Assembly: GCA_951812955.1 (NCBI GenBank)
Contig: OX638340.1
Span: forward strand, 128,001-192,000
DNA from: an uncultured Gemmatimonadota bacterium
GTDB lineage: Bacteria; JAAXHH01
Direction: 5' to 3'
DNA length: 64,000 nucleotides
Shown here piece after piece: positions 10,217 through 64,000 of the stretch. The translations under genes were made by a program, and so were the position numbers. The notes under the pieces were generated by a model. That model made no database searches. It was given only the letters and a program-made list of their open reading frames with translations, and was not told where the DNA came from. How positions within the stretch are numbered: the stretch's first letter is position 1; each line of letters opens with the position of its first letter.

Positions 10217-10244
10217 GGGATTTCACGGGTGGAAAGTATGCGGG

Positions 10245-10273: not shown

Positions 10274-10327
10274 GCGTTGAGTTGAATCGCGACAGACTGT
10301 TTTTCAGACGAATCGAAAGGGTCAAAG

Positions 10328-10966
10328 ATGATTTTCGAACAGGTACTGAACGGGGGCGACCGGAACTTCGGTTACCTGGTGGCCGACGAAAAGACCCGGA
10401 AAGCGGCGGCGGTCGATCCATCCTACCGGCCCGAATACTACATGCAGCGAGCGGGCGAGCTGGGCGTGGAACTTGCCTGCATCATCTGCACGCATTCCCA
10501 CCACGACCACGTAAACGGCAATGATCATCTTATCGAGGAACTGGGCATCGACGTGGTGATGTATCGGGACGCGGAGTATTTCTACGATATCGAGGTGACG
10601 GACGGCGAGGTGTTCACACTGGGTGAACTCGAACTGGCTGTGATTCACACGCCCGGCCACTGCGAGGACGGCATGTGTCTTCTGGCGGAAGACAGGCTGA
10701 TTACCGGGGACACGCTTTTCGTGGGTAAAGTGGGCGGCACGGCCACCAAAGAAGAAGCGAGGAAGGAATATGACAGCCTGCGGCGCCTGATGGAACTGGA
10801 CGACGATATCGGCGTCTACCCCGGCCATGACTTCGGAGTAAAGCCCTCGTCGTCGATCGGCTACGAGAGAGAGAACAATCCCTTTATCATGCAGCCCACT
10901 TTCGAGGATTTCCTGCATCTCAAGGAAAACTGGCTCGCGTACAAAGCGGAGCACAACATCCCATAG
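10328..10966 (+). CDS. MBL-fold metallo-hydrolase
   Basis: THxHxDH metal-binding motif (CTHSHHDHVNG) plus downstream His and Asp ligands. Confidence 0.8.
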   Translation: MIFEQVLNGGDRNFGYLVADEKTRKAAAVDPSYRPEYYMQRAGELGVELACIICTHSHHDHVNGNDHLIEELGIDVVMYRDAEYFYDIEVTDGEVFTLGELELAVIHTPGHCEDGMCLLAEDRLITGDTLFVGKVGGTATKEEARKEYDSLRRLMELDDDIGVYPGHDFGVKPSSSIGYERENNPFIMQPTFEDFLHLKENWLAYKAEHNIP

Positions 10967-16439: not shown

Positions 16440-16575
16440 GATCAGACCAGGCTGGATTGCTGGTCGCGGGCACGATGGGCTTCCCGATCAGACCAGGCTG
16501 GATTGCTGGTCGCGGGCACCATGGGCTTCCCGTTCAGACCAGGCTGGATTGCTGGTCGCGGGTACGATGGGATGA
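16440..16575. repeat. 46-bp unit repeated three times in tandem; the third copy contains the real stop and last codons of the minus-strand hydantoinase-fusion gene
   Basis: Copies 1 and 2 differ at one position. Copy 3 is diverged and encodes …RDQQSSLV*. An out-of-frame ORF (16442..16843) ends with the same peptide. Confidence 0.8.
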
Positions 16576-19500: not shown

Positions 19501-20316
19501 AGCCTGCACGGCCTGCCGTGCCGCGGCGTCCAGCGGTGTGACGCCGCCGTTGGAGGTCATGGTGAGTATCTCGTTCTCCAGCCCCAGTCCCGAAGTCTCT
19601 TCCTGCATGCGCCTGAGGTACCTGGCGTAGACTGGTCCCACGTAGGCGTTGACGGCCGTCGTGCTCAGCCGGTCGTATTCCTTGATCTGCGGCAGGATCC
19701 CGGAGGAGAGCGACAGGTAAAGGTCGGGATGCCGCTCCCGGATGCGTTCGCCCACGAACCGCTCATGGGACGGGTTCAGGTAGGAGAAAATCAGACACAC
19801 GGCCACGGATTCCACGCCGGCCTGTACGAGGACGTCCAGAATCTCGTCCAGCGCTTCGTCATCCACGGGCGCTTCGACGGCGCCGTCGGCGCGGACACGC
19901 TCCGCGAGCGTGCGGCGCAAAGCCCTGGGTACCAAAGGTTCCACGGGCGTCATCCGGAGATTGTACCGGTCTTCTTTCAAGCCTTCCCGAAGCTCCAGGA
20001 GGTCCCGGAAGCCCTCCGTAGTAATCAGGCCAACCCGGGCGCCCTTGCGCTCAAGCAGCGTGTTGGTCGCGACAGTGGTGCCGTGGATGAACAGGCGCGT
20101 CTGAGCCAGAAGTTCGGCAATGGGAAGACCGTAGGATCCTGCAATGTCCCGGAGCCCGTCCATCACCGCGTTGGAAGGTGCGTCGGGGGTGGATGCCGTC
20201 TTGAAGTAACGAGGCGCGGAACGACCTTCGACCACGACGAAATCCGTGAATGTCCCGCCAACGTCAATGCCGATGGAAAAGGGCTGAGGAGTGTCGTCCG
20301 TGGACCGACTATTCAT
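16534..20316 (-). CDS. Fused hydantoinase/oxoprolinase HyuA-HyuB polypeptide (5-oxoprolinase-like, ATP-dependent)
   Basis: The N-terminal half is Hydantoinase_A (FSIGIDVGGTFTDFV…). The C-terminal half is Hydantoinase_B (…GEGIPVHISALP…). They are joined by a Ser/Thr/Asp/Pro-rich linker. Start assigned to MNSRS at 20316; the ORF extends to 20424. Confidence 0.85.
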   Translation of the reverse strand: MNSRSTDDTPQPFSIGIDVGGTFTDFVVVEGRSAPRYFKTASTPDAPSNAVMDGLRDIAGSYGLPIAELLAQTRLFIHGTTVATNTLLERKGARVGLITTEGFRDLLELREGLKEDRYNLRMTPVEPLVPRALRRTLAERVRADGAVEAPVDDEALDEILDVLVQAGVESVAVCLIFSYLNPSHERFVGERIRERHPDLYLSLSSGILPQIKEYDRLSTTAVNAYVGPVYARYLRRMQEETSGLGLENEILTMTSNGGVTPLDAAARQAVQAILSGPAGGVSGAVAYGRLIGEANLIGFDMGGTSTDISVIEGGDPQVSGEHYEGGWKIAVPMIDLHTLGAGGGSIARVDDGGTLHVGPQSAGADPGPACYGQGGDRPTVTDANLVLGYLDPGNFLGGRTLLHPNRSQEALEAHVAKPLGLTVEEAAHGVLDVVTTAMAEGIRLLTVRRGGDPRNFSLLAFGGAAGLHVGKVARKTGISTVHLPSAAPVLSAYGMLASDLRYDYAQSFTASLDVVDLDEVRRLMDRMAEQGTAQLRKQGLAGDDITTLFTADMRYLDQIYEVNVSIPDLDQVDDAIRRTWAALFHERYRVLYSYHQLDQEVRLVTLRATITGKLPSIILPEKANAASTPAARKGTRRIYTGAWTEAAVFTADDLAPGVGIEGPAIVESDFTTVLVEEGDRLEIDSYGGMVLSVSHTTPDPVSATSDQTSATLDPASATSDPVTHSVVGHRLESIAREMADVMIRTSMSQILNSSRDFSTAILDAEGQLVAQGEGIPVHISALPPAVEAVREYFGDGIVEGDLFILNDPYFGGSHLPDITAIYPVFRDGNLLFFAVNRAHHSDIGGGTHGGYNPSASELYHEGLRIPPVRLYEAGRPREDLLRMLAVNVRHAENFTGDLHAQIGSVQIAARRLQSLLDDYGTEGLTTSVAAILDSAERRIRQLITGWRDGVYYGETLLDDDGFDAVSIPIRARVTVQDDNMTIDLGDSSPQVTGFINSAYANTRSLAHVAIMYMAPSDVPKNEGSMRPVKVIAPKGLIVNPNPPAPVCMSTNHCGEEIVEAVFKALAPVAPDAVNAGFSRRLRFAITGRDPRTGQRFIWHFFFGRGGGGASRGYDGWSCVGEVNVAGAIRSPSVEITEERFPFKIVRNDLRPGSGGDGTWRGGLGAVFEMVYEGDEPAKLNMAGDGVINPPFGLFGGEPGLPHRYKVVSNGTERMLKSKETEVPILPGDHIVALSAGGGGYGPPRSRASSHRTRDQQSSLV
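18130..18245. repeat. Nucleotide-level short repeats (gatgtagccga-like) encoding the low-complexity linker (…SATSDQTSATLDPASATSDPV…) between the HyuA and HyuB halves of the fused gene
   Basis: Read directly from the sequence and from the minus-strand translation. Confidence 0.6.
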
Positions 20317-20469
20317 GGGTGTTCTCCGGACCGTGTTGACGAAAAACGATCTGTGTCCTATACTATCGAAAGGCTCGTGTGAAGGGCTCGCAGAACGGAG
20401 TGCGGAAGCTGCATGCCGGAGCACGGCAGCATCCGACAGGTCCTATCGAAGATACAGCTGGACGAATAT

Positions 20470-21063
20470 ATGAATACAGACCGCATTTTCGAAAAAAACG
20501 AACACTGGATCAAGCGAAAACTAAGCGCCGATCCCGGTTATCTCGAGCGGCTTTCGCGGCAACAACAACCCGATATACTCTACATCGGATGCGCCGACAG
20601 CCGAGTAGCTCCCGAGGCCTTCATGGGCGCCGGGCCGGGTGAGGTCTTCGTGCACCGCAACGTGGGCAATCTGGCGATCCCCCTCGACCCGAACACCGGG
20701 TCCGCCATCGTCTACGGGGTCGAACACTTGAAAGTCGGGCACATCGTCGTGTGCGGGCACTACGACTGCGGTGCGGTGAAGGCGGTCATTCAGTCGGAGG
20801 ACCTCGGCACGCTCGAGCCCTGGCTGCGGCACTTGAGGAAGGTTTACCGCCGCCACGAGTCCGTACTGGTGTCCATTCCGGATTTCGCGGCCCGGTGCGA
20901 CCGCCTGGTCGAATGCAATGTCCGCGCGCAATGCGCCAACATATTGGAGTTTCCCGAGGTGCGAAAGTCGATCGAAGAGCACGGGTTGCAGGTGCACGGC
21001 TGGGTCTTCGACCTGCGCAACGGGCTGATCAAGGACCTGGCGGTCGGTCCCGTTCGGAAATGA
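20470..21063 (+). CDS. Beta-class carbonic anhydrase
   Basis: CADSRV…HYDCGAV zinc-ligand and active-site motifs. The ORF opens at 20413; MNTDRIF at 20470 is the plausible start. Confidence 0.8.
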   Translation: MNTDRIFEKNEHWIKRKLSADPGYLERLSRQQQPDILYIGCADSRVAPEAFMGAGPGEVFVHRNVGNLAIPLDPNTGSAIVYGVEHLKVGHIVVCGHYDCGAVKAVIQSEDLGTLEPWLRHLRKVYRRHESVLVSIPDFAARCDRLVECNVRAQCANILEFPEVRKSIEEHGLQVHGWVFDLRNGLIKDLAVGPVRK

Positions 21064-36334: not shown

Positions 36335-38563
36335 TCAGAGGAAACTCAGGTGGCGTTTCCTGTCGTTGACCCGTCCGATGCAGGCCGCCTGTTCGTATCC
36401 GGCGTCCCGGAGTTTCGCGATCACCTCTTCTTCCCGTGATGAAGGTACGCCGGCCAGAAGGCCTCCCGATGTCTGGGGATCGTAGAGGATGGCGTCTGCT
36501 ACGCCGGTTTCGGCCTCGACTTTCCACCTCTTCTGTAGATGTTCGCGGTTGGACGGCGCCAGCGTGCTTTCCACACCGGCCGCAATACACTCCTCGGTGC
36601 CCGCGTAACGGGGTATCCGATCTATTTCGAGCTCCGCGCTGGTGCCGCTGGCTTCGAGCATTTCGGCCAGGTGGCCCGCCAGGCCGAAGCCGGTCACGTC
36701 GGTGACTGCCGGAATCCCGACTTGCTTGAGGATGCTCGCCGCTTCACCGTTGGATTTCAGCATGCCCTCGAAGACCTCGTCGATCCAGGTGCCCTTCGCC
36801 TTCAGGTGCATGTCGGCTGCGAGTATGACTCCCGTGCCGACGGGCTTGGCCAAGATGATCCCGTCACCGGGACGCAGTCCGCCCTTTCTGAAAACCGAAT
36901 CGCTTCCGGCCAGACCGTTCATGGTCACGCTGACGGCCGTTTCCGAACCTTCGCTGGTATGGCCGCCCAGAAGCGTGATACGCAAGCGCCGCGCCTCTTC
37001 CGCGATCCCGCCCATGAGCTGTCTCAGATCGTTCGCCACGAGGTGTTTCTCCGCGTAGGGCAGGGTGACCGTAACGAGCGCCGAATGAGGTTCGGCCCCC
37101 ATGGCATATAGGTCGGACGCGGCGTGGACCAGGGCGATGCGGCCGAAGAGATGCAGGTCGCCTGTGAATGCGCGGAATCCGTCCACGGTCTGCACCAGCG
37201 ACCGGCCCGGAGGTATCTCCAGGAGCGCGGCGTCGTCGGCGTCATGCAGGCCGATCCGCACGTCCTCCCGGTCGAATACCTCCAGTTCATCGAGTACGCC
37301 GGTCAACACGGTCGAACCGACCTTGGCGCCGCACCCTGCACAGCGCATGGCGGCCTCGTCCGCGTCTCTGCCAGTTTCCTTACCGGAGGGCAGCGAATCG
37401 CCGGCCGGTTCCATGGGCGGCAGCAGCGAGGGATCGAACTTTCGCATCCACCGCTGGTCAATCCAGTTCTTCAGTCGCCATACCCACGCCCCATGGAATG
37501 AAATGTGGCGCCGGCTCGCGACGGCGTTCCGCGTACCGGTCATGAGCAGTGCGAGCGCCGAGGCCTGGGGCCTGAACGGAACCAGGGGGCGCTGCTCCAG
37601 CCATGCGTGGATATTCCGTGCGAGAATTGGCCCTTCCCGGACGGCGTATACCCCCGATTTAGGAAGGGGGCGTGACTCGAACTCGATGCAATCCCCCGCC
37701 GCGAAGACATTGTCGTAATCCATGGCCTGCAGCGTGGGGCGTACCCGGATGAAGCCGTTCCCGCTGGTTTCCAGGTTCGTCCGTTTCAGCAGGTCCGGCG
37801 ACGCTCCACCCGTGGCCCAGAGCAGGAAATCGCAGGGCAAGGATGAATGGTCCTCGAAATGGACGCCGTCCTCGTCCACCGCAGACACCCGAAGGCCCGT
37901 CAGGCACGTGATCCCCTTCTCTTCGAGATACCGCATGATCGTCCTGGCTACCCTGGGATTATGGCCGGTCAGCAAAGTGGACTGCGATTCCACAAGCGTG
38001 ATCTCTACCGGCGCGAAACGTACGCCCCACCTGGAGTGCATGGCGAAGGCCAGTTCCGCGCCGGCCGCACCGCCGCCCGCGATGACGATCCGCAGGGGTT
38101 GTCCGTCTGCGCGATAGTTTTTTTCGAACTGGTGAACCCTTCGCAGCAGCCTGCCGAGCGGTCTCGTGGGTACGGCGTTCTCACGCACGCCCGGGGTATC
38201 CAGGCCCCTGGGAATCGAACCGATATTGACCGATAGGGCATCGTAGGCCAGGGGCGGCCTGCCATCCTCGAAAAAAACCTGCTGGATTACGGGATCGATG
38301 GCGTCTACCCTTGCCCTAATGAACCGGATTCCCGCCCACGCGCACAGGGGCCTTAGTTCCATTTCCATTTCATCGGGTCGGTACAACCCGGCCAGGCAGC
38401 CGGGGAGCATTCCTGAATAGCAGACGCTGGATTCGTCTGAAATGAGCGTAACGCGGACGTCTCGAAGGGCTTTTTTCATGGTCAACATGCGGATTACCTG
38501 CACATGGGCGTGTCCGCCGCCGACCAGTACGAGGTCTTTCTTATAGGGTGATGCCTGGTTCAT
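36335..38563 (-). CDS. selD: Bifunctional fusion of an NADH-dehydrogenase-like FAD-dependent pyridine-nucleotide-disulfide oxidoreductase domain (N-terminus) with selenide, water dikinase SelD (C-terminus)
   Basis: The N-terminus has LVLVGGGHAH FAD-binding and later GGGAAG Rossmann motifs. The C-terminal half has the SelD N-terminal Cys/Lys motif (RCAGCGAKVG) and the AIR-synthase-like PurM fold. 742 aa. Confidence 0.8.
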   Translation of the reverse strand: MNQASPYKKDLVLVGGGHAHVQVIRMLTMKKALRDVRVTLISDESSVCYSGMLPGCLAGLYRPDEMEMELRPLCAWAGIRFIRARVDAIDPVIQQVFFEDGRPPLAYDALSVNIGSIPRGLDTPGVRENAVPTRPLGRLLRRVHQFEKNYRADGQPLRIVIAGGGAAGAELAFAMHSRWGVRFAPVEITLVESQSTLLTGHNPRVARTIMRYLEEKGITCLTGLRVSAVDEDGVHFEDHSSLPCDFLLWATGGASPDLLKRTNLETSGNGFIRVRPTLQAMDYDNVFAAGDCIEFESRPLPKSGVYAVREGPILARNIHAWLEQRPLVPFRPQASALALLMTGTRNAVASRRHISFHGAWVWRLKNWIDQRWMRKFDPSLLPPMEPAGDSLPSGKETGRDADEAAMRCAGCGAKVGSTVLTGVLDELEVFDREDVRIGLHDADDAALLEIPPGRSLVQTVDGFRAFTGDLHLFGRIALVHAASDLYAMGAEPHSALVTVTLPYAEKHLVANDLRQLMGGIAEEARRLRITLLGGHTSEGSETAVSVTMNGLAGSDSVFRKGGLRPGDGIILAKPVGTGVILAADMHLKAKGTWIDEVFEGMLKSNGEAASILKQVGIPAVTDVTGFGLAGHLAEMLEASGTSAELEIDRIPRYAGTEECIAAGVESTLAPSNREHLQKRWKVEAETGVADAILYDPQTSGGLLAGVPSSREEEVIAKLRDAGYEQAACIGRVNDRKRHLSFL

Positions 38564-44884: not shown

Positions 44885-46240
44885 ATGGCCAATGTCCTCC
44901 TGCTCATGTCCGACGAGCACAATCCGTTCTACGCTTCAGTCTACGGCCATTCCTTCGTGCATACCCCGGCCATGGACCGGCTCGCGGAGAACGGGGTCGT
45001 CTACGAGAGCGCCTACTGTCCCTCGCCCCTGTGCACGCCCAGCAGGTCCGCCTTCATGTCGGGACGCCGGGTCCACCAGATACAGGCCTATTCCAACTGC
45101 ACAATCGGCGTGGAGCCGGATATACCGACCTATGGACGCGCCCTGGCCGAACAGGGGGTTCATTCCGTGCACGTGGGCAAGACCCACGTTTACGCTCCGA
45201 GCAGTGGACTGGGATTCCGTGAGACGCGGAACGCCGTGGAGAATATGGGCGCCGGCGATCTGGAAATCGGCCGCCGTCCTTTCCGTATCAGGCGAGCGGC
45301 CGCGGAACGGGCCACCCAGTTCGGCGTGAAAGCATCGCATCTCCGGGTCGACCTGGACCGCGTCGACGCCGCCATAGACTGGATATCAAATACCGCGCCG
45401 ACCCTGGATACGCCGTGGACGCTCTCGGTAAACATCATCCATCCCCACTTCCCCCACTATACGTCGCAGGAACTCTGGGATCTCTATCCGCAAGGCGGCG
45501 ATCTGCCGGAGTACGGGACGGATCGGGAGACTGCGAACCACCCCAGGGCACGGGAAGTCAGGGAGCACTTCCAGACGGACGCGTTCACCGAGGAACAGGT
45601 ACGGGGACAGCGGCGGGGATACCTGGCGTGCGTGACGTTCGTGGACCGGCAGCTGGCGCGGCTTATCGAAGCGCTGAAGGCATCGGGACAATACGACGAT
45701 ACGAATGTCATTTACACGTCGGACCACGGCGAAATGCTTGGAAAGTTCGGCATGTGGTGGAAGTGTTCTCTCTACGAAGACGCGAGCCGGATCCCATGCA
45801 TCGCGGCGGGACCCGATTTTCCTGCGGATCTGCGCGTGTCGACGCCGGTGGACCTCCACGATGTACAGGCGAGCCTCTTCGAATCGACCGGCGCCGACCG
45901 TCCAATCGACTGGGTGGGGCGGCCTCTGCAGAACATGCCCGAACAGGATGACCAGCGCGTCGTTTTCTCCGAATACCATGGCCACGGCGTTCGCCAAAGT
46001 GCCTTCATGATCCGAAAAGGCAGATGGAAGTACATTCACCACCTTAACGCGCCGCACCAACTGTTCGACCTGGACCGGGATCCCGATGAACTGCAGAACG
46101 TGCATGGCGCGTGCGCCGAGGTGGCCGCAGACCTGGAGCGGGAGCTCCGCGCGATCTGCGATCCGGAAGTGGAGAACGACCGCGCGGATCGATTCATTGA
46201 AACGCAACTTGCGTCCATGTCGTCGAGTGGCCCATCGTAG
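44885..46240 (+). CDS. Cys-type sulfatase
   Basis: Signature C-T-P-S-R-S-A-F-M-S-G-R and the N-terminal LLLMSDEHN motif. Confidence 0.9.
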   Translation: MANVLLLMSDEHNPFYASVYGHSFVHTPAMDRLAENGVVYESAYCPSPLCTPSRSAFMSGRRVHQIQAYSNCTIGVEPDIPTYGRALAEQGVHSVHVGKTHVYAPSSGLGFRETRNAVENMGAGDLEIGRRPFRIRRAAAERATQFGVKASHLRVDLDRVDAAIDWISNTAPTLDTPWTLSVNIIHPHFPHYTSQELWDLYPQGGDLPEYGTDRETANHPRAREVREHFQTDAFTEEQVRGQRRGYLACVTFVDRQLARLIEALKASGQYDDTNVIYTSDHGEMLGKFGMWWKCSLYEDASRIPCIAAGPDFPADLRVSTPVDLHDVQASLFESTGADRPIDWVGRPLQNMPEQDDQRVVFSEYHGHGVRQSAFMIRKGRWKYIHHLNAPHQLFDLDRDPDELQNVHGACAEVAADLERELRAICDPEVENDRADRFIETQLASMSSSGPS

Positions 46241-46285
46241 CGAGCCCATCGTAACAAGCCCATCTGAATAAGCAAACGGAGCGAA

Positions 46286-47695
46286 ATGAGCGGGAAACGA
46301 TTGCTAGGAATCACCGTTCTGGCCGACTTCATCCTGAACGAGGGGGTGGAGTCCGTGCTGGACAATCTCGTCGAACGGGCCGGCGCCACAGCCGTGGCGC
46401 TGAACCCCACGGTGACCGCGCCGTCGGAGGAGGGGGCCGGTTCCTTCCAGCCACCCACCGACGCCGGAAGCAGTCCAAGGCTCTTCGATCGTCCCCTGTG
46501 GGGCCGGCGCTCGCTCTGGGTCCGTAGCGCGCCCAGTTATCACCCCCGAACCTCGTACTATGCCGATACTCCGTACAAGCCCCGCGCGCCGAACGAGTTG
46601 ACCGACGAGCATGGCGATCTGGTCGGACGATTCATCGACGCGGCCCTGGACCGGGGACTCAAGGTCTACCTGCAGTTGAGCGGCGCGACGCCACCCGGAC
46701 TCCTGGACGACGACCGGCCGCGACGGCCGGACGGACAACTGCCGGACCGCATGGCCGACACGGGATGTCTCGCCAGCGAGGCGATCCGGGCTTACATCGC
46801 GGCCTACGTGCGCGACCTGTTGGAGCAGTACCCTCGGATTACAGGATTCCGGCCGGACTGGCCCGAGTATCCCTGTTACAAGCTGGACGAAGCCTTTCAG
46901 GATTTCAATCCACAGGTGGCGCACTGGGCGGCGGCCCATGGATTCGACTACGCGTCCATACACCGGGAGGTCCTGGCGGCGTTCGAATATCTGCACGGAC
47001 GGCTCGAGAACGGTGATCTGCTGGACTTCAGCGGTCCCGGCCGGGGCACGGCGACGCTGGCTGAACTGCTCCGTTCCTCACCGGGTATCGTGGAGTGGAT
47101 GCGCCTTAAGTCCGCCCTGTCCAACGACCTGCTGCGCCACTGGAGGACCGTCGTCACGGACCATGGCGGACCCGAAATGGAGCTGTCTGCCAACGCCTTC
47201 ATGCTTCCGCTCACCCTGTGGACGGGCTTCGATTTCCGTGAAGCGGCGAAACTCTGCGACGCCCTGTCTCCCAAGCTGTATACCATGCACTGGTCGGTCA
47301 TGGTGGAATTCTGGGGGCGGGTACTCCTGAAGCACAATCCCGGCCTGGACGAGCGGCTTCTGGTGCGTTCGCTCGCCCATCTCTTCGACCTGGGCGATGA
47401 AATCACGGCCACACGCATCGATCAATACAGGTATCCCGATCCCGACGAGCCCCATCCCATTCCCGACAACGTCCAGAGTCGGCGGATCGAGCAGGTCTGC
47501 GCCGAAGTGAACGGCCGCGCGTTGGTCACCCCGCTGATGCACGGTTACGGCCCGCACCACGACTTCGTCCGGCGTTTCAGGGTGGTGGCGGAAAGCCCGG
47601 CCGATGGCGTATGGATCAATCGTTACGGGTACCTCAGCGACGAAAAGCTGGATGCGGTGGGGCGCATATGGCGGCGAGCAGACCGAGCAACTTGA
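46286..47695 (+). CDS. Hypothetical protein embedded in the sulfatase locus (no family recognised; possibly a TIM-barrel hydrolase-like fold)
   Basis: 469-aa ORF with a coding-like composition. It sits between two sulfatase genes. Confidence 0.5.
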   Translation: MSGKRLLGITVLADFILNEGVESVLDNLVERAGATAVALNPTVTAPSEEGAGSFQPPTDAGSSPRLFDRPLWGRRSLWVRSAPSYHPRTSYYADTPYKPRAPNELTDEHGDLVGRFIDAALDRGLKVYLQLSGATPPGLLDDDRPRRPDGQLPDRMADTGCLASEAIRAYIAAYVRDLLEQYPRITGFRPDWPEYPCYKLDEAFQDFNPQVAHWAAAHGFDYASIHREVLAAFEYLHGRLENGDLLDFSGPGRGTATLAELLRSSPGIVEWMRLKSALSNDLLRHWRTVVTDHGGPEMELSANAFMLPLTLWTGFDFREAAKLCDALSPKLYTMHWSVMVEFWGRVLLKHNPGLDERLLVRSLAHLFDLGDEITATRIDQYRYPDPDEPHPIPDNVQSRRIEQVCAEVNGRALVTPLMHGYGPHHDFVRRFRVVAESPADGVWINRYGYLSDEKLDAVGRIWRRADRAT

Positions 47696-47745
47696 CGGCG
47701 CCTGCTGGACGAGGTGGGCCGCATCTGGCGGCGCACTCGAAAGGA
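47647..47745. repeat. Two imperfect tandem copies (~57 bp) spanning the 3' end and stop of the hypothetical gene
   Basis: Copy 1 encodes LDAVGRIWRRADRAT*. Copy 2 (ctggacgaggtgggccgcatctggcggcgcactcga) would encode LDEVGRIWRRTR. Confidence 0.7.
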
Positions 47746-47750
47746 AACCA

Positions 47751-49277
47751 ATGACCCGGCCCAACATCCTGTTCATCATGACGGACCAGCAGCGCTTCGA
47801 TACCATCGCCGCGCTGGGGAACGACGTCATCCACACGCCTAACATGGATCGCCTGGTGCGCCGGGGCGTTTCCTTTACCCGGGGCTACTCGACCTGCCCC
47901 GTCTGTGTGGCGGCGCGGACGACCATCCGCACCGGTTGTGATCCGCCCACTACCCGCGTATTCAGTAACAGCCGGTCCGCTCCTGTGCCAGGCCAGGCCG
48001 GTACGCTTGAAGGCCGGTGCGGGGACTATCTTGCACGTACCCTGTCGGCGATGGGCTACCGAACCTTCGGCGTGGGAAAGTTCCACACGGCCCCATGGGA
48101 TGAAGACATCGGATATGAATCCCAGCTGCATAGCGAGGAGCTTTACGCCAGCCCGCGTCAGCGTCGGGAGGAAGCCTACGCGGGATGGATTGCGCGGGAA
48201 CATCCGGAATTCGACTATATCGAAGCGCTCATGGGGGAACGGACTGAGATGTACTACATGCCCCAGGCGAGTCCGCTGCCCGCCCACCTGACCTTGGAAT
48301 CCTGGGCGGCCGACCGCTCGATCGAGGCATTGCAGCAACCCGGCGATCGGCCGTTCTTCGGCTTCGTGTCCTTCATCGGTCCTCATCCGCCCTTTGCGCC
48401 GCCTGTACCCTTCAATCGGATCTACGATCCCGACCGTATGCCCGGTCCGGTTCGGGGCGAAAAGGCGGTGGACCACATGGACGAGCAGATACCCTACATG
48501 AACCGGATCATCTGGGCGGACGAGATCAACGATGCCTTGACACGGACTCTAAAGGCCCGTTATTACGGAGAGATCACCTACATCGACGATTGCCTGGGAC
48601 GGATACTGGATGCCGTCGAGGCCAGGGCGGACGCCAATGATACGCTCATCTGCTTTTTCTCGGACCACGGCGACCATCTCGGCGACCATACGGCTTGGCA
48701 AAAGGAGAGTTTCTTCGACGTTTCGGCACGGGTGCCTTTCCTGGTAAGCTGGCCCGCCCGGCTTCCGCGGGATGTCCGCCGAGACGACCTGGTCTGCCTG
48801 ACCGATCTGTTTGCCATCGCCACCCATGCCGCCGGACAGACCCAGGTCCGCGACGGTGTCGACGTACTCGGCGCAATCGAAGGCAGCGTCTCGCCGAGGG
48901 AGCACCTCTTCGGATATTACGGCGAGCCGGGAACGGACCGGTTCAAAATCATGGTCCGAAGCGAAGACTGGAAATACATTTACCTGGCCAACGGAGGTGG
49001 GGAGCAACTCTTCAATACGGCCGAAGACCCCGCCGAGATCGCGAACAGGATCGAGACCGATCGGGACGTGGCGGACGGTCTGTATCGCTGTGCAGTGGAA
49101 GCATGTGGCCATCCAGGCGCTTCCGGTGCCCTGGTTGGCAAGAACCTGAGGTCCTTTCCCTACACCAGGTGGAAGGCCTCGCGGATATACCAGTTCGACC
49201 GCTCGCGGGATGTGCGGGGGTTTCCCGGTCATCCCAGCGAAGTGTTGGGTCCCTGGATCCGTCGCGGCCGCAGATAA
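47751..49277 (+). CDS. Sulfatase with a variant active-site motif C-V-A-A-R-T-T-I-R-T-G (Pro replaced by Ala)
   Basis: ILFIMTDQQRFD metal-binding N-terminus. The motif keeps the R(+4) and TG(+9/+10) spacing but has Ala at +2. The ATG at 47751 is preceded by AAGGAA. The ORF opens at 47604. Confidence 0.85.
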   Translation: MTRPNILFIMTDQQRFDTIAALGNDVIHTPNMDRLVRRGVSFTRGYSTCPVCVAARTTIRTGCDPPTTRVFSNSRSAPVPGQAGTLEGRCGDYLARTLSAMGYRTFGVGKFHTAPWDEDIGYESQLHSEELYASPRQRREEAYAGWIAREHPEFDYIEALMGERTEMYYMPQASPLPAHLTLESWAADRSIEALQQPGDRPFFGFVSFIGPHPPFAPPVPFNRIYDPDRMPGPVRGEKAVDHMDEQIPYMNRIIWADEINDALTRTLKARYYGEITYIDDCLGRILDAVEARADANDTLICFFSDHGDHLGDHTAWQKESFFDVSARVPFLVSWPARLPRDVRRDDLVCLTDLFAIATHAAGQTQVRDGVDVLGAIEGSVSPREHLFGYYGEPGTDRFKIMVRSEDWKYIYLANGGGEQLFNTAEDPAEIANRIETDRDVADGLYRCAVEACGHPGASGALVGKNLRSFPYTRWKASRIYQFDRSRDVRGFPGHPSEVLGPWIRRGRR

Positions 49278-49391
49278 GAGGCGACACGGCCGCAGATAAG
49301 AATCAGGGTGACCGGAGTTTGTCTCGGTTTTCCCCGCAATATCATTCTTGGGAATCCGCGCTCGAATCGACGAAGAGGAAGAGTTCATATC

Positions 49392-50738
49392 GTGAACCCC
49401 GTTGATACATCCACCGCAGTCCCGGCATCGGCCATGCCTTCCGCCGGAGGCGACCCGGTCCCCGTCCCGGCGTTCCACGTGATGATGAAACCCCGGGGGG
49501 CCATCTGCAATCTCGATTGCAAGTACTGCTACTTCCTCGCGAAGGAGGACCTGTACCCGGGCAGCGGATTCCGCATGTCCGAAGACCTGCTCGAAGAATA
49601 CATCCGGCAGTACATCGAGGCCCAGCAGGTACCGGAAGTCACCTTTGCCTGGCAGGGCGGCGAGCCCACGCTCATGGGACTGGACTTCTTCCGCAAAGCC
49701 GTTGAATTCCAGAAAAAACACCAGAAACCGGGAACGCGGCTATTCAACTCGCTGCAGACCAACGGTACGCTCCTCGACCGGGACTGGTGCCAGTTCTTTC
49801 ATGAAAACGACTTCCTGATCGGTCTTAGCCTGGACGGCCCCCGGGCGCTGCACGACGCCTACCGGGTCGACAAGGGCGGCAAACCGACCTTCGACACCGT
49901 AATGCGCGCCGCCGAGATGATGCAGTCCCACGAGGTCGAATTCAACATACTGACCACGGTGCACGCGGCGAACGCGGGGCACCCCGTCGAAGTCTATCGC
50001 TTCATGCGGGACGTGGTGAAGACCCGCTTTATCCAGTTCATTCCTATCGTGGAGCGGGACAACGAGACAGGGTACCAGGAAGGCAACGAAGTGACGAACC
50101 GGTCGGTGACGGGGAAGCAGTACGGCCGGTTCCTGATCGGGATTTTCGACGAATGGGTACGCCGGGACGTGGGGAATATGTACGTGCAGATATTCGACGT
50201 GTCGCTCGCTGCCTGGTCGGGCCAGAGCCCGGGTCTCTGCATATTCATGGAGACCTGCGGCGATGCCCTCGCCCTGGAGCACAACGGGGATCTATATTCC
50301 TGTGATCACTATGTCGAACCGGATTACAAGCTGGGGAATATCGCCGAAATACCCATGATGGATATGGTCCTGTCCGATCAGCAGCGGGCCTTTGGACAGG
50401 CCAAACTGGACACGCTTCCGCAATACTGCCTGTCATGCGACGTGCGGTTCATCTGCAACGGGGGTTGTCCGAAGAATCGTATCATAAACACGCCCGACGG
50501 CGAACCGGGCCTGAACTACCTGTGCGAGGGGTACAAGGCCTTCTTCCACCACATCGACGGTCCCATGCAATTTATGGCCAATGAACTGCGCAACCGGCGG
50601 GCTCCCGCCAACGTGATGTCGTACATCCGCCAGCGCGAATCCGAACTTCGGAAACAGCAGCAGTTTCAATCGGTGGGGCGAAACGATCCCTGTCCTTGCG
50701 GAAGCGGCCTGAAGTACAAGCGGTGCCACGGAAGGTAG
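49392..50738 (+). CDS. Anaerobic sulfatase-maturating enzyme (radical SAM/SPASM), with a C-terminal SEC-C metal-binding motif
   Basis: CNLDCKYCYF (Cx3Cx2C) and SPASM Cys clusters (CLSCDVRFICNGGCP). C-terminal DPCPCGSGLKYKRCHG. GTG at 49392 follows GAGGAAGAG by 8 nt. An alternative ATG lies at 49434. Confidence 0.85.
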   Translation: MNPVDTSTAVPASAMPSAGGDPVPVPAFHVMMKPRGAICNLDCKYCYFLAKEDLYPGSGFRMSEDLLEEYIRQYIEAQQVPEVTFAWQGGEPTLMGLDFFRKAVEFQKKHQKPGTRLFNSLQTNGTLLDRDWCQFFHENDFLIGLSLDGPRALHDAYRVDKGGKPTFDTVMRAAEMMQSHEVEFNILTTVHAANAGHPVEVYRFMRDVVKTRFIQFIPIVERDNETGYQEGNEVTNRSVTGKQYGRFLIGIFDEWVRRDVGNMYVQIFDVSLAAWSGQSPGLCIFMETCGDALALEHNGDLYSCDHYVEPDYKLGNIAEIPMMDMVLSDQQRAFGQAKLDTLPQYCLSCDVRFICNGGCPKNRIINTPDGEPGLNYLCEGYKAFFHHIDGPMQFMANELRNRRAPANVMSYIRQRESELRKQQQFQSVGRNDPCPCGSGLKYKRCHGR

Positions 50739-58399: not shown

Positions 58400-59263
58400 C
58401 TACTCGAAGTAGCGGCCCACGATCGGCTTCAGCTTCTCCAGCGTGCCGCCGGGTACCGAATCCCGGTCGGAAACGATGGCGTTGGCCAGCGCGTTGTGAC
58501 AGCGGCACGTGCTTTCCACCGGGATGGCCGGCACCACGTGGCGGACGACCTGCCGCGCCTGTTCCACGTTGGCGTGCAGGTTCTCGATGATCATGTCGAC
58601 GGTGACGGCGTCGTGATCTTCGTGCCAGCAGTCGTAGTCGGTGGAACACGCGATCGTGGCGTAGCAGATCTCGGCCTCCCGGGCCAGCTTGGCTTCCGGC
58701 GCGGCCGTCATGCCGATGACCGAGAACCCCCAGCCCCGGTAAACGTTCGATTCCGCCCTGGTCGAGAACTGGGGTCCCTCCATGCAGAGATAGGTGCCGC
58801 CGTCATGTACCGTCAACCCCGTCGATTCAGCGCCGTCGACGAGCAGTTTGCGCAAGGGGCCGCAAAAGGGTTCGGCGAGGCCCACGTGCACGACGAGATC
58901 GTTGCCGAAGAAGCTGGTCGCGCGGTGCCGCGTATGGTCGTACAGCTGATCCGGAATGACGAAGTCCCGCGGACGTATGTGCTCCTGGAGACTGCCCACC
59001 GCGCTGACCGACAGGATCCACTGCACGCCCAGCGTCTTCAGCGCGAAGATGTTCGCCCGCACGTTAATTTCAGACGGCCCGATGCGGTGGCCGCGGCCGT
59101 GACGTGCCAGGAAAGCCACGCGCCGGCCCTCGAGGGTGCCGGTCACGATTGCGTCGCTGGGATCGCCGAAGGGGGTGGCGGGCCGGACCTCCTTGAGATC
59201 CGTCAGGCCTTCCATACCGTAGAACCCCGTGCCGCCGATAACCGCGATCTGCGCGTTCGCCAT
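58400..59263 (-). CDS. mtnP: S-methyl-5'-thioadenosine phosphorylase
   Basis: MANAQIAVIGGTGFY…, a PNP/MTAP family-2 N-terminus and conserved body. 287 aa. Confidence 0.88.
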   Translation of the reverse strand: MANAQIAVIGGTGFYGMEGLTDLKEVRPATPFGDPSDAIVTGTLEGRRVAFLARHGRGHRIGPSEINVRANIFALKTLGVQWILSVSAVGSLQEHIRPRDFVIPDQLYDHTRHRATSFFGNDLVVHVGLAEPFCGPLRKLLVDGAESTGLTVHDGGTYLCMEGPQFSTRAESNVYRGWGFSVIGMTAAPEAKLAREAEICYATIACSTDYDCWHEDHDAVTVDMIIENLHANVEQARQVVRHVVPAIPVESTCRCHNALANAIVSDRDSVPGGTLEKLKPIVGRYFE

Positions 59264-59385
59264 TTCGCAACTCCCCTGGTTGATTCGAACGGTTCGTTTA
59301 CAACGATGAAACCTGATGAAATGGTGCTGGAGTAGACATATAACCCGCCCCTCTTTTTATATCAATAAATAAAATCGATTAGTTC

Positions 59386-59413
59386 TTGACAACGCCCCCC
59401 GGCGGTTTATCTT
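59386..59413 (+). promoter_or_regulatory. Candidate sigma70-type promoter of the nuo operon, with an AT-rich UP-like element upstream (59350-59385)
   Basis: TTGACA at 59386-59391, a 16-nt spacer, then TATCTT at 59408-59413, preceded by tttttatatcaataaataaaatcgatt. Confidence 0.45.
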
Positions 59414-59434
59414 GATCGGCGAGTTCAGGGATAG

Positions 59435-59842
59435 ATGTACCTGGAAGCAGCCTCTGTCGACCGATCTATCTGGTTATCCCGAATCGACTACATGTCATAC
59501 CTTCCCCTTATCCTGCTCGTCCTGCTTGTCCTGATCGTCGCGGCCGTAATCATTACCCTTTCTACTTTCATAGGCAGAAAAAAAACGAGCGCCTCCAAGC
59601 TTGCGTCCTACGAATGCGGTGTTCCGCTTCAGGACTCCGCCCGGAAGAGCTTCTCCGTCAAGTTCTACCTGATCGCAATCCTTTTCATTCTTTTTGACGT
59701 GGAGATCATTTACCTCTACCCATGGGCCGTCGTTTATGGCGATCTTCAGGTATTCGGCGCATTAGCCATGGGGGTGTTCTTTCTGATGCTTGTCATCGGA
59801 TTCCTGTACGAATGGAAACGGGGAGCCCTGGAATGGGATTAG
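59435..59842 (+). CDS. nuoA: NADH-quinone oxidoreductase subunit A
   Basis: [10 protein letters not shown]…[24 protein letters not shown] NuoA signature. Start is ATG at 59435, or the alternative ATG at 59492. Confidence 0.85.
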
Positions 59843-60303
59843 AAGACCAGCTTCAGGAAAACGTCATGACCACCAAGGTCGACGCGATGGTCGGCTGGGC
59901 CCGGAAAAATTCGCTCTGGCCGATGCCTTTCGGCACCGCCTGTTGCGCCATCGAACTCATGGCGACGCTGGCCTCCCGGTTCGACCTGGCCCGTTTCGGA
60001 GCCGAAGCCATACGGTTTTCCCCCCGGCAGTCCGATCTGCTGATCGTTTCCGGGAGGGTTTCCATCAAGATGATGCCCGTACTGAAGACGATCTACGACC
60101 AGATGCCGGAACCCAAGTGGGTCGTCTCCATGGGAGCCTGTGCCTCCTCTGGCGGCGTATTCAATACCTATACGCTAGTGCAGGGCGTTGACCAGTATAT
60201 CCCGGTGGATGTGTATATCCCGGGTTGTCCCCCCAGGCCCGAAAACGTGATCCAGGCGTTGATGAAGATCCAGGAGAAAGTGGCCCAGGCCAAAGCGAAC
60301 TGA
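59833..60303 (+). CDS. nuoB: NADH-quinone oxidoreductase subunit B
   Basis: The Cys ligands of the N2 [4Fe-4S] cluster are present (…CCAIELM…GACASSGG…CPP). The start overlaps the nuoA stop. Confidence 0.9.
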
Positions 60304-60944
60304 TGAACAGAAAATCCATCGCAGAGCTTCTGCTCGACATCAAAGCAGTCACCATCAACGTCGAAGCCCCCTACCATTACAGTTCCGGTATAATATCTCC
60401 TATATATTGCGATAACCGCCTGATCATATCCTGTCTGGAAGAGCGCAAGGTGATCGTCGACGCATTTATCGAGATCATCGACGCCCTCGAAGTTTCGCCG
60501 GATGTCATCGCGGGAACGGCGACCGCCGCCATCCCATTCGCGGCGTGGGTATCGAACCGCCTGGACCTGCCCATGGTCTATGCGCGTTCGGGACAGAAAG
60601 GCTACGGCAAGGAACACCGGGTCGAGGGCACCCTGGTCCCCGGTCAGAAGGTGCTTTTCACCGAAGACCTGGTCACCACGGGTGGGGGCGTGCTGAAAGC
60701 GGTCGAAGACGTGGTCAGGTTCGACGTGGAGGTGATCGGCGTGGCCACCATTTTCGAGTACGGCCTGCCCGCCGCCACGGAGGGATTCCAGAAGGCCGGT
60801 CTGCCGAAATGGAGCATGGCGGACTTCGTGGCCATTCTGGACGTCATGAGTGAGCGGGGCGAGCTTTCGGACGACAGTAGAGACATCGCAATGGACTGGC
60901 AATCGGATCCCAGGGGCTGGGGCAGCAAGATGGGTTTCGAATAA
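60303..60944 (+). CDS. pyrE: Orotate phosphoribosyltransferase
   Basis: Type-I PRTase PRPP-binding motif (VLFTEDLVTTGGGV) and an OPRTase-like N-terminus. The ATG overlaps the nuoB TGA (TGATG). Confidence 0.8.
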   Translation: MNRKSIAELLLDIKAVTINVEAPYHYSSGIISPIYCDNRLIISCLEERKVIVDAFIEIIDALEVSPDVIAGTATAAIPFAAWVSNRLDLPMVYARSGQKGYGKEHRVEGTLVPGQKVLFTEDLVTTGGGVLKAVEDVVRFDVEVIGVATIFEYGLPAATEGFQKAGLPKWSMADFVAILDVMSERGELSDDSRDIAMDWQSDPRGWGSKMGFE

Positions 60945-60955
60945 AGGGGATTGAA

Positions 60956-61492
60956 GTGGAGAACCAGGAGGAACGCCAGACCGAGGGCGTTGATCCGCAG
61001 GAGCCGGACCAGGGCGAGGTAACGGCGCGAATCCGGGCCCGGTTCGTCGACGCGTCGGTCCGGCGCGGCAACGCGGTGGGGTGCGAGAGTGTCATCGCCG
61101 AGCTGGATTCGCTTCACCCGTTCATGACCTTTCTGAGAGACGATCCGGAATTGGCTTTCGATTATCTCGTCGACGTGACCGCCGTGGACCGGTTGAAGCT
61201 CGACGAGGCCATCCGTTACGCCGTAGTCTACCAGCTGTATTCCTACAAATTCAACCGCCGTTTCAGCGTAAGCGTTCCCGTTCCGGAAGCAGACCCCCGG
61301 ATCGAGTCGGTGGTGTCTGTCTGGCCTGGCGCGAACTGGCTGGAACGGGAAGTGTACGACATGTACGGGATCGTCTTCGACGGCCATCCCGACCTGCGCC
61401 GCATCCTGATGCCGGACGACTTCGGCTCGCATCCCCTGAGGAAGGACTATCCCCTTCACGGCAAAGGGGAAAGGGACAACTTCGTTTTCTAG
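60956..61492 (+). CDS. nuoC: NADH-quinone oxidoreductase subunit C
   Basis: NuoC/30-kDa subunit motifs (…WLEREVYDMYGIVFDGHPDLRRIL…). GTG start follows AAGGGGA by 5 nt. Confidence 0.85.
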   Translation: MENQEERQTEGVDPQEPDQGEVTARIRARFVDASVRRGNAVGCESVIAELDSLHPFMTFLRDDPELAFDYLVDVTAVDRLKLDEAIRYAVVYQLYSYKFNRRFSVSVPVPEADPRIESVVSVWPGANWLEREVYDMYGIVFDGHPDLRRILMPDDFGSHPLRKDYPLHGKGERDNFVF

Positions 61493-61525
61493 CCGGCCGT
61501 TCGCGATGGACACGGCCAGGCCCCT

Positions 61526-62803
61526 GTGAAAGCACGCACCGTGAATACCACGCAAATCGATAAGCTCGCCGAGACGGACCTCGAGGAAATCCGGAACGAA
61601 CGGGTAACTTTCGAGCGCACGCCCGACATGCCCAGCGAGCACATGATCCTCAATTTCGGTCCCCAGCATCCGGCGACCCACGGGACGCTGCACATCGTGC
61701 TGGAACTGGACGGAGAAAAGGTCGTGGGCGCCACGCCGCACCTCGGCTACCTGCACACCGGCTTCGAGAAACTGGGAGAGTACCGGAGTTACAACCAGTT
61801 CGTCACGCTGACCGACCGGATGAATTACCTGTCCCCCTTAAGCAACAACATTGGCTATTCTCACGCGGTCGAGAAACTGATGGATATCGAAATCACGCCG
61901 CGCTGCCGGAATATACGGGTCGCCCTGGCCGAACTTTCCCGCCTCGCCGACCACCTGTTGTGCGTCGGCACGGCCGCCCTCGATATCGGTGCGTTCACCG
62001 CCTTTCTGTACGGGTTCAGGGCCCGGGAAGTGCTGTACGACCTGTTCGAAGCGGTATGCGGCACGCGGCTGACCACGAGTTATACGCGCGTGGGCGGTCT
62101 CCTGCGCGACGTGCCGGACAATTTCGCGGAGATGGCCCGTGAATCGGTGGAGGAGACACTGACGGCCGCGTCGGAAATCGACCGGCTCCTGACGCATAAC
62201 CGCATCTGGCGCGACCGGACCGAGGGCGTGGGCGTACTCTCCGCGGAAGACGCCGTGGCCTGGGGCGCCACGGGACCGGTGCTCAGGGCGTCGGGTGTCG
62301 ACTGGGACATCCGCAAGAACGAGCCTTACCTCGGGTACGAGGGCTACGATTTCGACATCCCCATCGGCCGGAACGGGGACGCGTACGACCGCTATCTCGT
62401 GCGGATGGAAGAGATCAGGCAGAGTGCGGAGATTGTTCGGCAGGCCGTGGAAAACATGCCGTCGGGGCCCGTGAACGCCGAGGAAGAACACGCCGTACTG
62501 CCCGAGAAATCGGAAGTTTACGAGTCCATGGAATCGTTGATCTACCATTTCAAGATGACCATGGAGGGGCATGGGCCGACACCGCCGGTGGGCGAGGTGT
62601 ATGCCGCGACGGAAGCGCCGAACGGAGAACTGGGTTTTTTCATCGTCAGCGACGGCAGCCGGGAACCTTACCGTATACGGGTGCGTCCCCCGTCTTTCAT
62701 CAACTTTTCGTTATTCCCCATGCTGATAAAGGGGCATATGCTTTCCGACGTCGTTGCGATACTGGGCAGCCTGAATGTCATCGCCGGAGAACTGGACCGA
62801 TAG
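61526..62803 (+). CDS. nuoD: NADH-quinone oxidoreductase subunit D
   Basis: …NFGPQHPATHG… and …RVGG… 49-kDa subunit signatures. GTG start. Confidence 0.9.
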   Translation: MKARTVNTTQIDKLAETDLEEIRNERVTFERTPDMPSEHMILNFGPQHPATHGTLHIVLELDGEKVVGATPHLGYLHTGFEKLGEYRSYNQFVTLTDRMNYLSPLSNNIGYSHAVEKLMDIEITPRCRNIRVALAELSRLADHLLCVGTAALDIGAFTAFLYGFRAREVLYDLFEAVCGTRLTTSYTRVGGLLRDVPDNFAEMARESVEETLTAASEIDRLLTHNRIWRDRTEGVGVLSAEDAVAWGATGPVLRASGVDWDIRKNEPYLGYEGYDFDIPIGRNGDAYDRYLVRMEEIRQSAEIVRQAVENMPSGPVNAEEEHAVLPEKSEVYESMESLIYHFKMTMEGHGPTPPVGEVYAATEAPNGELGFFIVSDGSREPYRIRVRPPSFINFSLFPMLIKGHMLSDVVAILGSLNVIAGELDR

Positions 62804-63296
62804 CTTGGCCACACCGTTGGAATTCACAGAAGAGGCGCGGAAGCGCGCGGCGGAGATCCTGAGCCGGTATCCTGATGAATACAGGAAGTCGGCCGTGGTT
62901 CCGCTCCTGCATCTCGCGCAGGAAGAGTGGGGTTTCGTCTCGCCGGAAGCCATGGCCTGCGTGGCCAGGCTGATCGGCTGCTCGCCGGTCAAGGTCGCCG
63001 AAATCGCGACGTTCTATCCCATGTTCAACAAGGAGCCCGTGGGCGATCATGTACTGGCGGTATGCCATACGCTGCCCTGCGCGCTGACCGGATGCGGGGA
63101 CATTTTCGATCACCTGTCGGATAAACTCGGCATCCGACTCGGCGAGACCACGGAAGACGGCCGTTTCACGCTGCGTAAGTCGGAATGCCTTGCTGCCTGC
63201 GACCGCGGCCCCGTGCTCTTGGTAAACCGGAAACTGCACACCCATCTCACCACGGCTAGGGTCGACGAAATTCTCGATGGCCTGGAAGAAGGATAG
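62775..63296 (+). CDS. nuoE: NADH-quinone oxidoreductase subunit E (24-kDa, [2Fe-2S])
   Basis: The four-Cys ligand pattern (C…C…C…C) is present in a thioredoxin-like fold. The start overlaps the nuoD 3' end. Confidence 0.9.
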   Translation: MSSPENWTDSLATPLEFTEEARKRAAEILSRYPDEYRKSAVVPLLHLAQEEWGFVSPEAMACVARLIGCSPVKVAEIATFYPMFNKEPVGDHVLAVCHTLPCALTGCGDIFDHLSDKLGIRLGETTEDGRFTLRKSECLAACDRGPVLLVNRKLHTHLTTARVDEILDGLEEG

Positions 63297-63299
63297 CGC

Positions 63300-64000
63300 A
63301 TGGCCGCACCGCTAGCGATACTGACGGCGCACCCGCCGGCGGGAACCGATCCCGGTGATATCGAAGCGTACATGGCCGGCGGCGGTTACGGCGCGGTACG
63401 GAAGGCGCTCACGACCATAAGCAAGGACGGACTGATCGAAGAGATCAACGCCTCGGGGATCAAGGGCCGGGGCGGTGCCGGATTCTCGACGGGCATGAAG
63501 TGGAACCTGTGCGCCGACCTGTATCCGCGGTACCTGTGCGCAAACGCGGACGAAAGCGAACCCGGCAGCTTCAAGGACCGGCTCCTGCTGGAATCGAAAC
63601 CCCATCAGATCATCGAAGGCATGATCATCACCAGCTACGCCCTGGGGATCAACCTGGGCTATATCTATATCCGCGGTGAGTTCTTCCAGATCATCGACCA
63701 GATGGAAGCCGCCCTGGCGGACGCCGAAAAACACGGCTTCCTCGGCAAGAATATCCTGGATTCGGGCTTCGATCTGGAACTGTACGTCCATCCCGGCGCC
63801 GGGGCCTACATTTGCGGAGAAGAGACGGGCCTGATCGAATCCCTCGAGGGCAACCGGCCCTACCCCCGGCTGAAACCGCCGTTCTTCCCCGCCGCCATCG
63901 GTCTCTGGGGACAGCCCACGATCGTGAACAACGTGGAAACCATGGCCCAGATCACCACGATCGTCGACATGGGGGCGGAAGCCTACAAGCAGATCGGAAC
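63300..64000 (+). CDS. nuoF: NADH-quinone oxidoreductase subunit F (51-kDa), 5' fragment running off the window
   Basis: GIKGRGGAGFSTGMKW (FMN/NADH-binding) in the translation. The ATG is 4 nt after the nuoE stop. Confidence 0.9.
   Translation, partial: MAAPLAILTAHPPAGTDPGDIEAYMAGGGYGAVRKALTTISKDGLIEEINASGIKGRGGAGFSTGMKWNLCADLYPRYLCANADESEPGSFKDRLLLESKPHQIIEGMIITSYALGINLGYIYIRGEFFQIIDQMEAALADAEKHGFLGKNILDSGFDLELYVHPGAGAYICGEETGLIESLEGNRPYPRLKPPFFPAAIGLWGQPTIVNNVETMAQITTIVDMGAEAYKQIG

Follow-up and report, generated by a model that had tools for sequence, protein, structure and literature searches.

The canonical 14-gene operon for respiratory complex I (nuoA-N in Escherichia coli, nqo in Thermus) is served by one promoter at its upstream end, and its gene junctions are short or overlap. 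In some other bacteria nuo B, C and D are fused, and NCBIfam provides a model of such a fusion (NF009808). The unidentified reading frames (URFs) in the nqo operon of Paracoccus and the nuo operon of Rhodobacter capsulatus show that complex I operons can also harbour non-nuo reading frames. A survey of complex I allows up to 10 open reading frames (ORFs) that are not nuo to lie between nuo genes (PMC4453560). Here we analysed a 64,000 nt stretch of DNA (the window; contig OX638340.1 of assembly GCA_951812955.1) from an uncultured Gemmatimonadota bacterium, which contains the nuoA-F part of an operon with the same genes, the same order, a single upstream promoter and similarly short or overlapping junctions. 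Unlike the canonical operon, it carries a non-nuo housekeeping gene, pyrE for orotate phosphoribosyltransferase (OPRTase), between nuoB and nuoC. We consider it likely that this pyrE, long fixed in the operon, is a housekeeping passenger that is transcribed together with the complex I genes and encodes a working OPRTase.

The pyr operon of Bacillus subtilis contains a pyrE of the Bacillus type. The pyrE of the window belongs to the same enzyme subfamily, but pyr genes do not adjoin it, an RNA element of the PyrR type is absent, and its expression signals appear to be borrowed from a respiratory operon. The pyrE gene of E. coli is preceded by an intercistronic attenuator that is sensitive to uridine triphosphate. 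It lies downstream of the unrelated gene rph, and rph-pyrE is the closest functional analogue of a pyrE with an output that hinges on an unrelated gene upstream. The rph-1 frameshift lowers PyrE and leads to pyrimidine starvation (PMC11148124, citing Jensen 1993). Unlike in rph-pyrE, no attenuator-like terminator or structure was seen at the nuoB-pyrE junction, and further host-operon genes come after pyrE. A full-text search combining pyrE with nuoB/nuoC, and OPRTase with NADH dehydrogenase operons, retrieved no description of pyrE inside a nuo operon, and a genome survey of complex I mentions neither orotate nor pyrE (PMC4758237). The arrangement appears to be undescribed, the gene itself being already annotated as OPRTase in public metagenome-assembled genomes (MAGs).

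On the plus strand of the 64-kb window the ORF listing and direct reading give the order nuoA, nuoB, pyrE, nuoC, nuoD, nuoE and a partial nuoF, and every nuo gene was unambiguously assigned by Pfam and NCBIfam models. NuoA (59492–59842; 116 aa, as in all relatives; PF00507, E 6e-35) overlaps by 10 nt at its end with nuoB (59833–60303; 156 aa; PF01058 and TIGR01957, 230 bits), the protein product of which is 92–98% identical across the clade described below. The TGA of nuoB (60301–60303) and the ATG of pyrE (60303–60305) share one base (cTGATGa), and pyrE (60303–60944; 213 aa) ends with TAA. A spacer of 11 nt (60945–60955), which includes the Shine-Dalgarno-like AGGGGA, separates this stop codon from the GTG of nuoC (60956–61492; 178 aa; PF00329, E 1e-46, and TIGR01961). 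It is followed by nuoD (61526–62803; 425 aa from the GTG at 61526, with an alternative GTG start at 61541; TIGR01962, 527 bits) and by nuoE (62775–63296; TIGR01958, 170 bits), which starts at the ATG at 62775 or at the in-frame TTG at 62805; nuoE is called at 159–163 aa in relatives, where the gene calls in locus L001 were used. The 5′ part of nuoF (63300–64000; TIGR01959, PF01512) is cut by the window end. The genes A to F are co-linear in the window, G to L come next in the relative L001, and the upstream promoter is conserved, as expected for a genuine complex I operon. A previous sequence-only reading of the window had reported this gene order, the overlap of the nuoB stop with the pyrE start and a sigma70-like promoter with an AT-rich tract, all of which we find as described; it had also placed nuoC 12 nt behind the pyrE stop with its own Shine-Dalgarno sequence, and here the motif is present while the distance is 11 nt.

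The same reading had proposed to check the PyrE assignment with hidden Markov models (HMMs). The product passes the equivalog model TIGR00336, and solved structures as well as the predicted fold agree with the assignment. Sequence matches to OPRTases of known structure, from Bacillus anthracis, Streptococcus mutans and S. pyogenes, have E values of 5e-46 to 4e-42 (PDB 3m3h at 5e-46), a profile built from the clade improves the match to 7e-62, and the identity to the B. anthracis enzyme is 46%. PF00156 matches the protein, as expected for a type I phosphoribosyltransferase fold with its motif for binding phosphoribosyl pyrophosphate (PRPP). In an alignment that includes distant relatives, E121, D122, T126 and G127 of this motif (VLFTEDLVTTGGG) do not vary. 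The catalytic residues R95 and K99 of the flexible loop are invariant in 21 sequences, and two features common to solved Bacillus-type OPRTases, an F-x-Y strand and the hood motif IYCDNR, are likewise unchanged throughout the alignment. The clade has a signature of its own, consisting of EAPYHY, AAIPF, SGQKGYGK (with Tyr for the usual loop His) and TTGGG. A Tyr at the loop position is also present in the Leishmania UMP synthase 3qw4, and a Phe at this position together with an IPFAAW variant is found in the Burkholderia OPRTase 4ohc.

An AlphaFold2 model of the window PyrE has a mean predicted local distance difference test value of 91.8, and confidence dips only in the flexible loop. Its best 29 fold matches in the PDB are all OPRTases, and the template modelling scores to the closest OPRTase crystal structures (2aee, 4rv4 and 3dez) are 0.87–0.92. 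The 213 aa cover the full OPRTase fold, with no extra domain or extension. By HMM, by match to solved structures and by predicted fold the inserted ORF is thus assigned as an OPRTase, and the product is predicted to be a normal, catalytically competent enzyme. The 64-kb window contains no second pyrE, merely chance-level matches at about 40.1–40.2 kb (E > 0.2) in an ORF with no Pfam match. Among the best 120 homologues there was no second Bacillus-type copy on contigs matching the complete genomes in length, and a look-up of the exact window PyrE sequence found no record.

In order to compare the locus with related genomes, as the sequence-only reading had also suggested, contigs with PyrE proteins of the clade were fetched from ENA, NCBI, JGI and Logan. 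PyrE homologues form a tight clade with at least 59% identity to the window protein, after which identity drops to at most 49%; NuoD homologues show the same break (at least 73%, then at most 67%). The order nuoA-nuoB-pyrE-nuoC-nuoD-nuoE-nuoF(-G-H-I-J-K-L) was found in all intact loci of the clade (PyrE 59–99% identical), that is, L001-3, L005-7, L087-90, L093-94, L097-L100 and L103-L105, which correspond to about 13 distinct loci with nuoB-pyrE-nuoC. It recurs in every relative examined with PyrE at least 59% identical. The short contigs L101, L106 and L107 contain parts of the same nuo-pyrE order, and a comparison of the PyrE and NuoD match lists suggests the same arrangement in six more clusters. 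Proteins encoded on the metagenome contig MKWU01002708.1 are 97–99% identical to those of the window over nuoA-nuoF. The clade is an uncultured marine and sponge-associated lineage labelled Gemmatimonadota at NCBI. Most members are MAGs named 'Gemmatimonadetes/Gemmatimonadota bacterium' with the gene annotated as OPRTase; a few cluster members are named only 'phosphoribosyltransferase family protein' by the NCBI annotation pipeline PGAP. A scan of GTDB was dominated by the general motif SPIYCDNR and yielded one close relative (L007), so that the spread over species representatives is under-sampled.

Outside the clade the arrangement was not seen. None of 81 more distant pyrE loci had nuo neighbours, nor did any of 65 further loci recovered via a shared C-terminal motif. 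The nearest outgroup PyrE (P0040, 49% identical, locus L091) is encoded within a pyr operon with the order carB, pyrB, pyrI, pyrD, pyrK, pyrC, pyrE, pyrF. In two outgroup nuo operons (NuoD 62–64% identical) nuoC directly follows nuoB at a distance of 3–15 nt. One outgroup operon (L095, GCA_964577695.1) has four small ORFs with no Pfam match between nuoD and nuoE (6338–7775) and an AF2212-like/PIN toxin-antitoxin-like pair between nuoF and nuoG (9979–10723). Since foreign ORFs are present inside this operon, insertions in nuo operons seem to be tolerated in this part of the tree. The window operon shares this tolerance of unrelated ORFs. Unlike in other interrupted operons, its insert is a core metabolic enzyme of well-known function and is fixed throughout the lineage, and the promoter of the operon outlives the nuo genes in front of pyrE.

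Sequence divergence points to an old insertion. In comparison to L001, the ratio of nonsynonymous to synonymous substitution rates (dN/dS) is 0.088 for pyrE, 0.017 for nuoB, 0.129 for nuoC and 0.060 for nuoD, which shows that purifying selection acts on pyrE as it does on the neighbouring genes. Between sublineages the synonymous sites have reached saturation, and for this reason no dN/dS is given for deep pairs. Between sublineages the identity of PyrE (61–70%) lies between that of NuoC (55–65%) and that of NuoD (74–77%). The GC content of pyrE, in total and at third codon positions (GC3), equals that of the neighbouring genes, and a recent horizontal transfer was rejected on these grounds. 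By these comparisons the insertion dates far back and the gene is under constraint.

The putative nuo promoter (59386–59413) consists of TTGACA, a 16 nt spacer and TATCTT, and an AT-rich tract precedes it at about 59350–59380. A consensus scan of the plus strand from 59200 to 61600 found no other sigma-70-like match, and a single match is at chance level (shuffles average 1.2). We judge this promoter to be real because CTTGAC and TAT(C/T)TTG are invariant in all eight aligned loci, which include one locus with decayed nuo genes, whereas mean column identity over the remainder of the region is 47%. The scanner also picks the orthologous promoter in L089, L005 and L004. No promoter-like site was detected by the scanner in the nuoB-pyrE spacers of L089 (61 nt) and L005 (62 nt); in L089 there is one weak 9/12 match inside pyrE and one inside nuoC, about the level of shuffled sequences. 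The window has no terminator-like site on the plus strand between 59200 and 61600, and in scans of the window, L089 and L005 the sole plus-strand matches were in the 5′ leader and in nuoB of L089, at chance level. Because pyrE lies inside the operon with no room for a promoter or terminator of its own, it would be co-transcribed with the nuo genes, and because it has no promoter of its own we infer that this transcription starts at the conserved nuo promoter.

The 5′ untranslated leader of the operon (59414–59491) contains an inverted repeat, GATAGAT...(30 nt)...ATCTATC (59431–59478), which is present in L001 and L087 and not in L007. As an RNA hairpin it folds no better than shuffled sequences (z +0.3 to +0.6), and the repeat could instead be a protein-binding site. 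Rfam gave no match in the window or in L004, L005, L089 and L093, and we therefore assume that these loci have no PyrR site or known attenuator.

The nuoB-pyrE junction differs between sublineages. A 1 nt overlap (TGATG or TAATG) is present in the window group and the L087 group (the window, L001, L007 and L087), whereas L093 has a spacer of 24 nt, L089 one of 61 nt and L005 one of 62 nt. In none of the lineages does pyrE have a Shine-Dalgarno sequence, and no purine-rich one lies upstream of the ATG in the four loci with the overlap. The sequence around the pyrE start is rich in A and, in the majority of lineages, folds less than shuffled controls do. A hairpin that masks the start at this junction was considered and rejected, as z is −1.2 to −1.4 in the window and L001, positive elsewhere, and the structure is not conserved. 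In the sublineage of the window, ribosomes that finish nuoB probably reinitiate on pyrE, because a Shine-Dalgarno sequence is missing and the start codon shares a base with the stop of nuoB. This coupling is not a general requirement, because elsewhere in the clade an unstructured spacer of 24–62 nt separates the two genes; the overlap geometry is thus not maintained wherever the pair occurs. Reinitiation is plausible where the codons overlap, and the obligate co-translation of pyrE with nuo genes, proposed in the sequence-only reading, does not hold for the clade as a whole. The gap between pyrE and nuoC is 1–15 nt in every intact relative, and because nuoC is always this close, pyrE now lies on the expression path of nuoC and the later genes.

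Five loci of the clade have lost the nuo genes around pyrE, and the PyrE tree assigns them to two independent lineages. In the first (L102, L110 and L111), which is sister to the L087 group, 752 bp are missing between the 5′ leader and about codon 117 of nuoB, and the promoter is spared. In L102 (2560–2736) an intact 39-codon ORF results, in which MDRSTFP is joined to the last 32 NuoB residues and which ends in TAATG on the pyrE start; no remnant of nuoC was found in these loci. The second lineage (L004 and L108, sister to the L089 group) retains a 3′ piece of nuoA and a weak trace of the nuoC N-terminus, and in its nuoB the first 17 and last 32 codons are joined in frame at a Val-Asp repeat. 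In L004 (7669–8003) the old nuoB stop is now CAA, and the ORF extends to a TGA that overlaps the pyrE ATG (ATGA). Both lineages have kept the promoter and the upstream PNP-family gene, and the same methyltransferase gene now follows pyrE. The gene is full-length in L004 and L102, with PyrE branch lengths similar to those of intact relatives. In two lineages pyrE and its promoter thus escaped several separate deletions, which suggests that the gene was needed at a time when the complex I genes were not.

The retained end of nuoB could be a selected leader ORF for pyrE. The nuoB tail of L102 differs from that of L087 in 19 of 99 nt and in 3 of 33 aa and is in frame, which supports this speculation for L102; the tail of L004 differs from L089 in 12 of 32 aa and is preceded by a stop, which does not.

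These data are consistent with the following scheme. In the common ancestor of the lineage pyrE would have lodged between nuoB and nuoC and would have stayed there ever since. OPRTase supply would track the expression of complex I, a link that may be selected or merely tolerated, and OPRTase function itself would not need complex I. The gene would be hard to remove without polar effects, and it would depend on the nuo promoter, which outlasts the nuo genes in front of pyrE. Among the three options named in the sequence-only reading, an insertion tolerated in the operon fits best.

Several observations weigh against a working OPRTase that is simply carried along. The equivalog cut-off of TIGR00336 is passed only narrowly (109.4 versus 106.8 bits), the full-length model NF001729 gives 145 against a cut-off of 245, and the scan of window ORFs revealed no further pyr gene. 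A damaged pyrE is present in three of the five decayed loci: W82 is changed from TGG to TAG in L108, 4 nt are deleted in the G-run of the TTGGG codons in L110, and L111 has a 349-bp deletion in addition to a 1-nt frameshift in the G-run. None of the 13 distinct intact loci has such a lesion (Fisher p = 0.012, uncorrected for phylogeny although the independent events number just two). Sequencing error could explain two of these three lesions, but is harder to invoke for the large deletion. It follows from these lesions either that pyrE is dispensable to some of these strains, due to salvage or another copy, or that its upkeep is linked to the operon. A functional tie of pyrE upkeep to complex I, with PyrE as a partner of the Q module or as a metabolic partner, e.g., by channelling orotate from a quinone-linked dihydroorotate dehydrogenase, would explain both the lasting position between nuoB and nuoC and the damage to pyrE just in nuo-decayed lineages; we regard it as quite improbable. 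Retention of pyrE only in company of complex I genes is contradicted by L004 and L102, although the damaged copies in L108, L110 and L111 make the case less clear-cut. The sequence-only reading had also put forward a moonlighting role. On this view PyrE would be a moonlighting or recruited protein that takes part in assembling complex I or in its function, possibly besides catalysis. This would account for the location between the Q-module genes throughout the clade, for the clade-specific substitutions near the active site and for the confinement of lesions to nuo-decayed lineages, and position and lesion pattern are the only positive evidence for it. We nevertheless consider it very unlikely, as several separate deletions of flanking nuo genes left a full-length pyrE which in L004 and L102 diverges no faster than in intact lineages, the catalytic motifs are all retained, the unusual residues also occur in bona fide OPRTases, and the protein adds no domain or extension to the OPRTase fold.

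Alternatively, the position of pyrE may itself be adaptive and match OPRTase output to respiratory capacity, possibly via a quinone-dependent dihydroorotate dehydrogenase that supplies PyrE with orotate and passes electrons into the same quinone pool as is reduced by complex I. Such selected regulatory coupling is in line with an arrangement that remained stable over a divergence deep enough to saturate synonymous sites, with the tight pyrE-nuoC junction in all intact loci and with the nuo promoter that decayed operons keep before pyrE. A precedent is given by E. coli, where pyrE output can hinge on translation of the unrelated upstream rph (PMC11148124). Stability is equally expected, however, of a neutral passenger the excision of which causes polar damage to an essential-like operon, and neither an RNA family match nor folding of leader and junction beyond the level of shuffles points to a regulatory RNA; we therefore view adaptive coupling as unlikely. 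A further rival reading is a phosphoribosyltransferase with altered base specificity, acting on a substrate other than orotate. The marginal equivalog score, the substitution in the clade of positions that are conserved in other Bacillus-type PyrE proteins and the PGAP label on some members would be in accordance with it, but the closest proteins by sequence and by predicted fold are all OPRTases and the F-x-Y strand and IYCDNR hood are invariant, which makes it highly improbable. Finally, an artificial junction due to sequencing or assembly, which the sequence-only reading had named as a possible objection, is excluded for practical purposes because the same order recurs in more than 12 independent assemblies from several sequencing projects, including multi-megabase contigs, one of which has a name suffix that suggests a circular assembly. 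A housekeeping passenger inside the nuo operon remains the explanation that we favour.

The locus provides a clean, lineage-wide case in which a respiratory operon has captured a core biosynthetic gene, and pyrimidine nucleotide supply in this group is probably wired to the transcription of complex I. The relatives represent a natural deletion series that shows on which parts of the host operon a passenger gene depends, and nuoB-pyrE-nuoC can serve as a simple synteny marker for the uncultured lineage. Our understanding of the mechanism of complex I or OPRTase is unchanged by this finding.

Two further features of these loci should be mentioned. In L102 (about 3100–3125) the codons for TTGGG in the PRPP loop contain a stretch of 8 G, which has 7 G in L111 and is affected by the 4-nt deletion in L110; either the tract is hypermutable and inactivates pyrE, or the differences are an artefact of sequencing. 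Divergent to the nuo operon of the window, a gene of the PNP_UDP_1 family is located on the minus strand (58400–59263; ORF, PF01048 in relatives, synteny by tblastn), presumably encoding methylthioadenosine phosphorylase (MTAP). It is the upstream synteny anchor in most relatives examined, including the nuo-decayed loci, and L005 and L093 have different upstream neighbours.

Elsewhere in the window, a 1296-aa single-chain hydantoinase/oxoprolinase with fused A and B parts is encoded on the minus strand (16534–20424), adjoining genes for a beta-class carbonic anhydrase (20413–21063) and an amidohydrolase. A 742-aa ORF on the minus strand (36335–38563) combines a pyridine nucleotide-disulphide oxidoreductase domain (Pyr_redox_2) with AIRS/AIRS_C domains in a SelD-like or ThiL-like fusion. 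Three ORFs between 38920 and 42103 (174, 280 and 535 aa) have no Pfam match, and the two on the minus strand have a GC3 of 0.61, below that of their neighbours; these two may not be real genes, or true genes may lie on the other strand. On the plus strand (44885–50738), two sulfatase genes precede one for a radical SAM/SPASM protein with a SEC-C motif at its end. This protein is probably similar to anaerobic sulfatase-maturases, its C-terminal tail being unusual.

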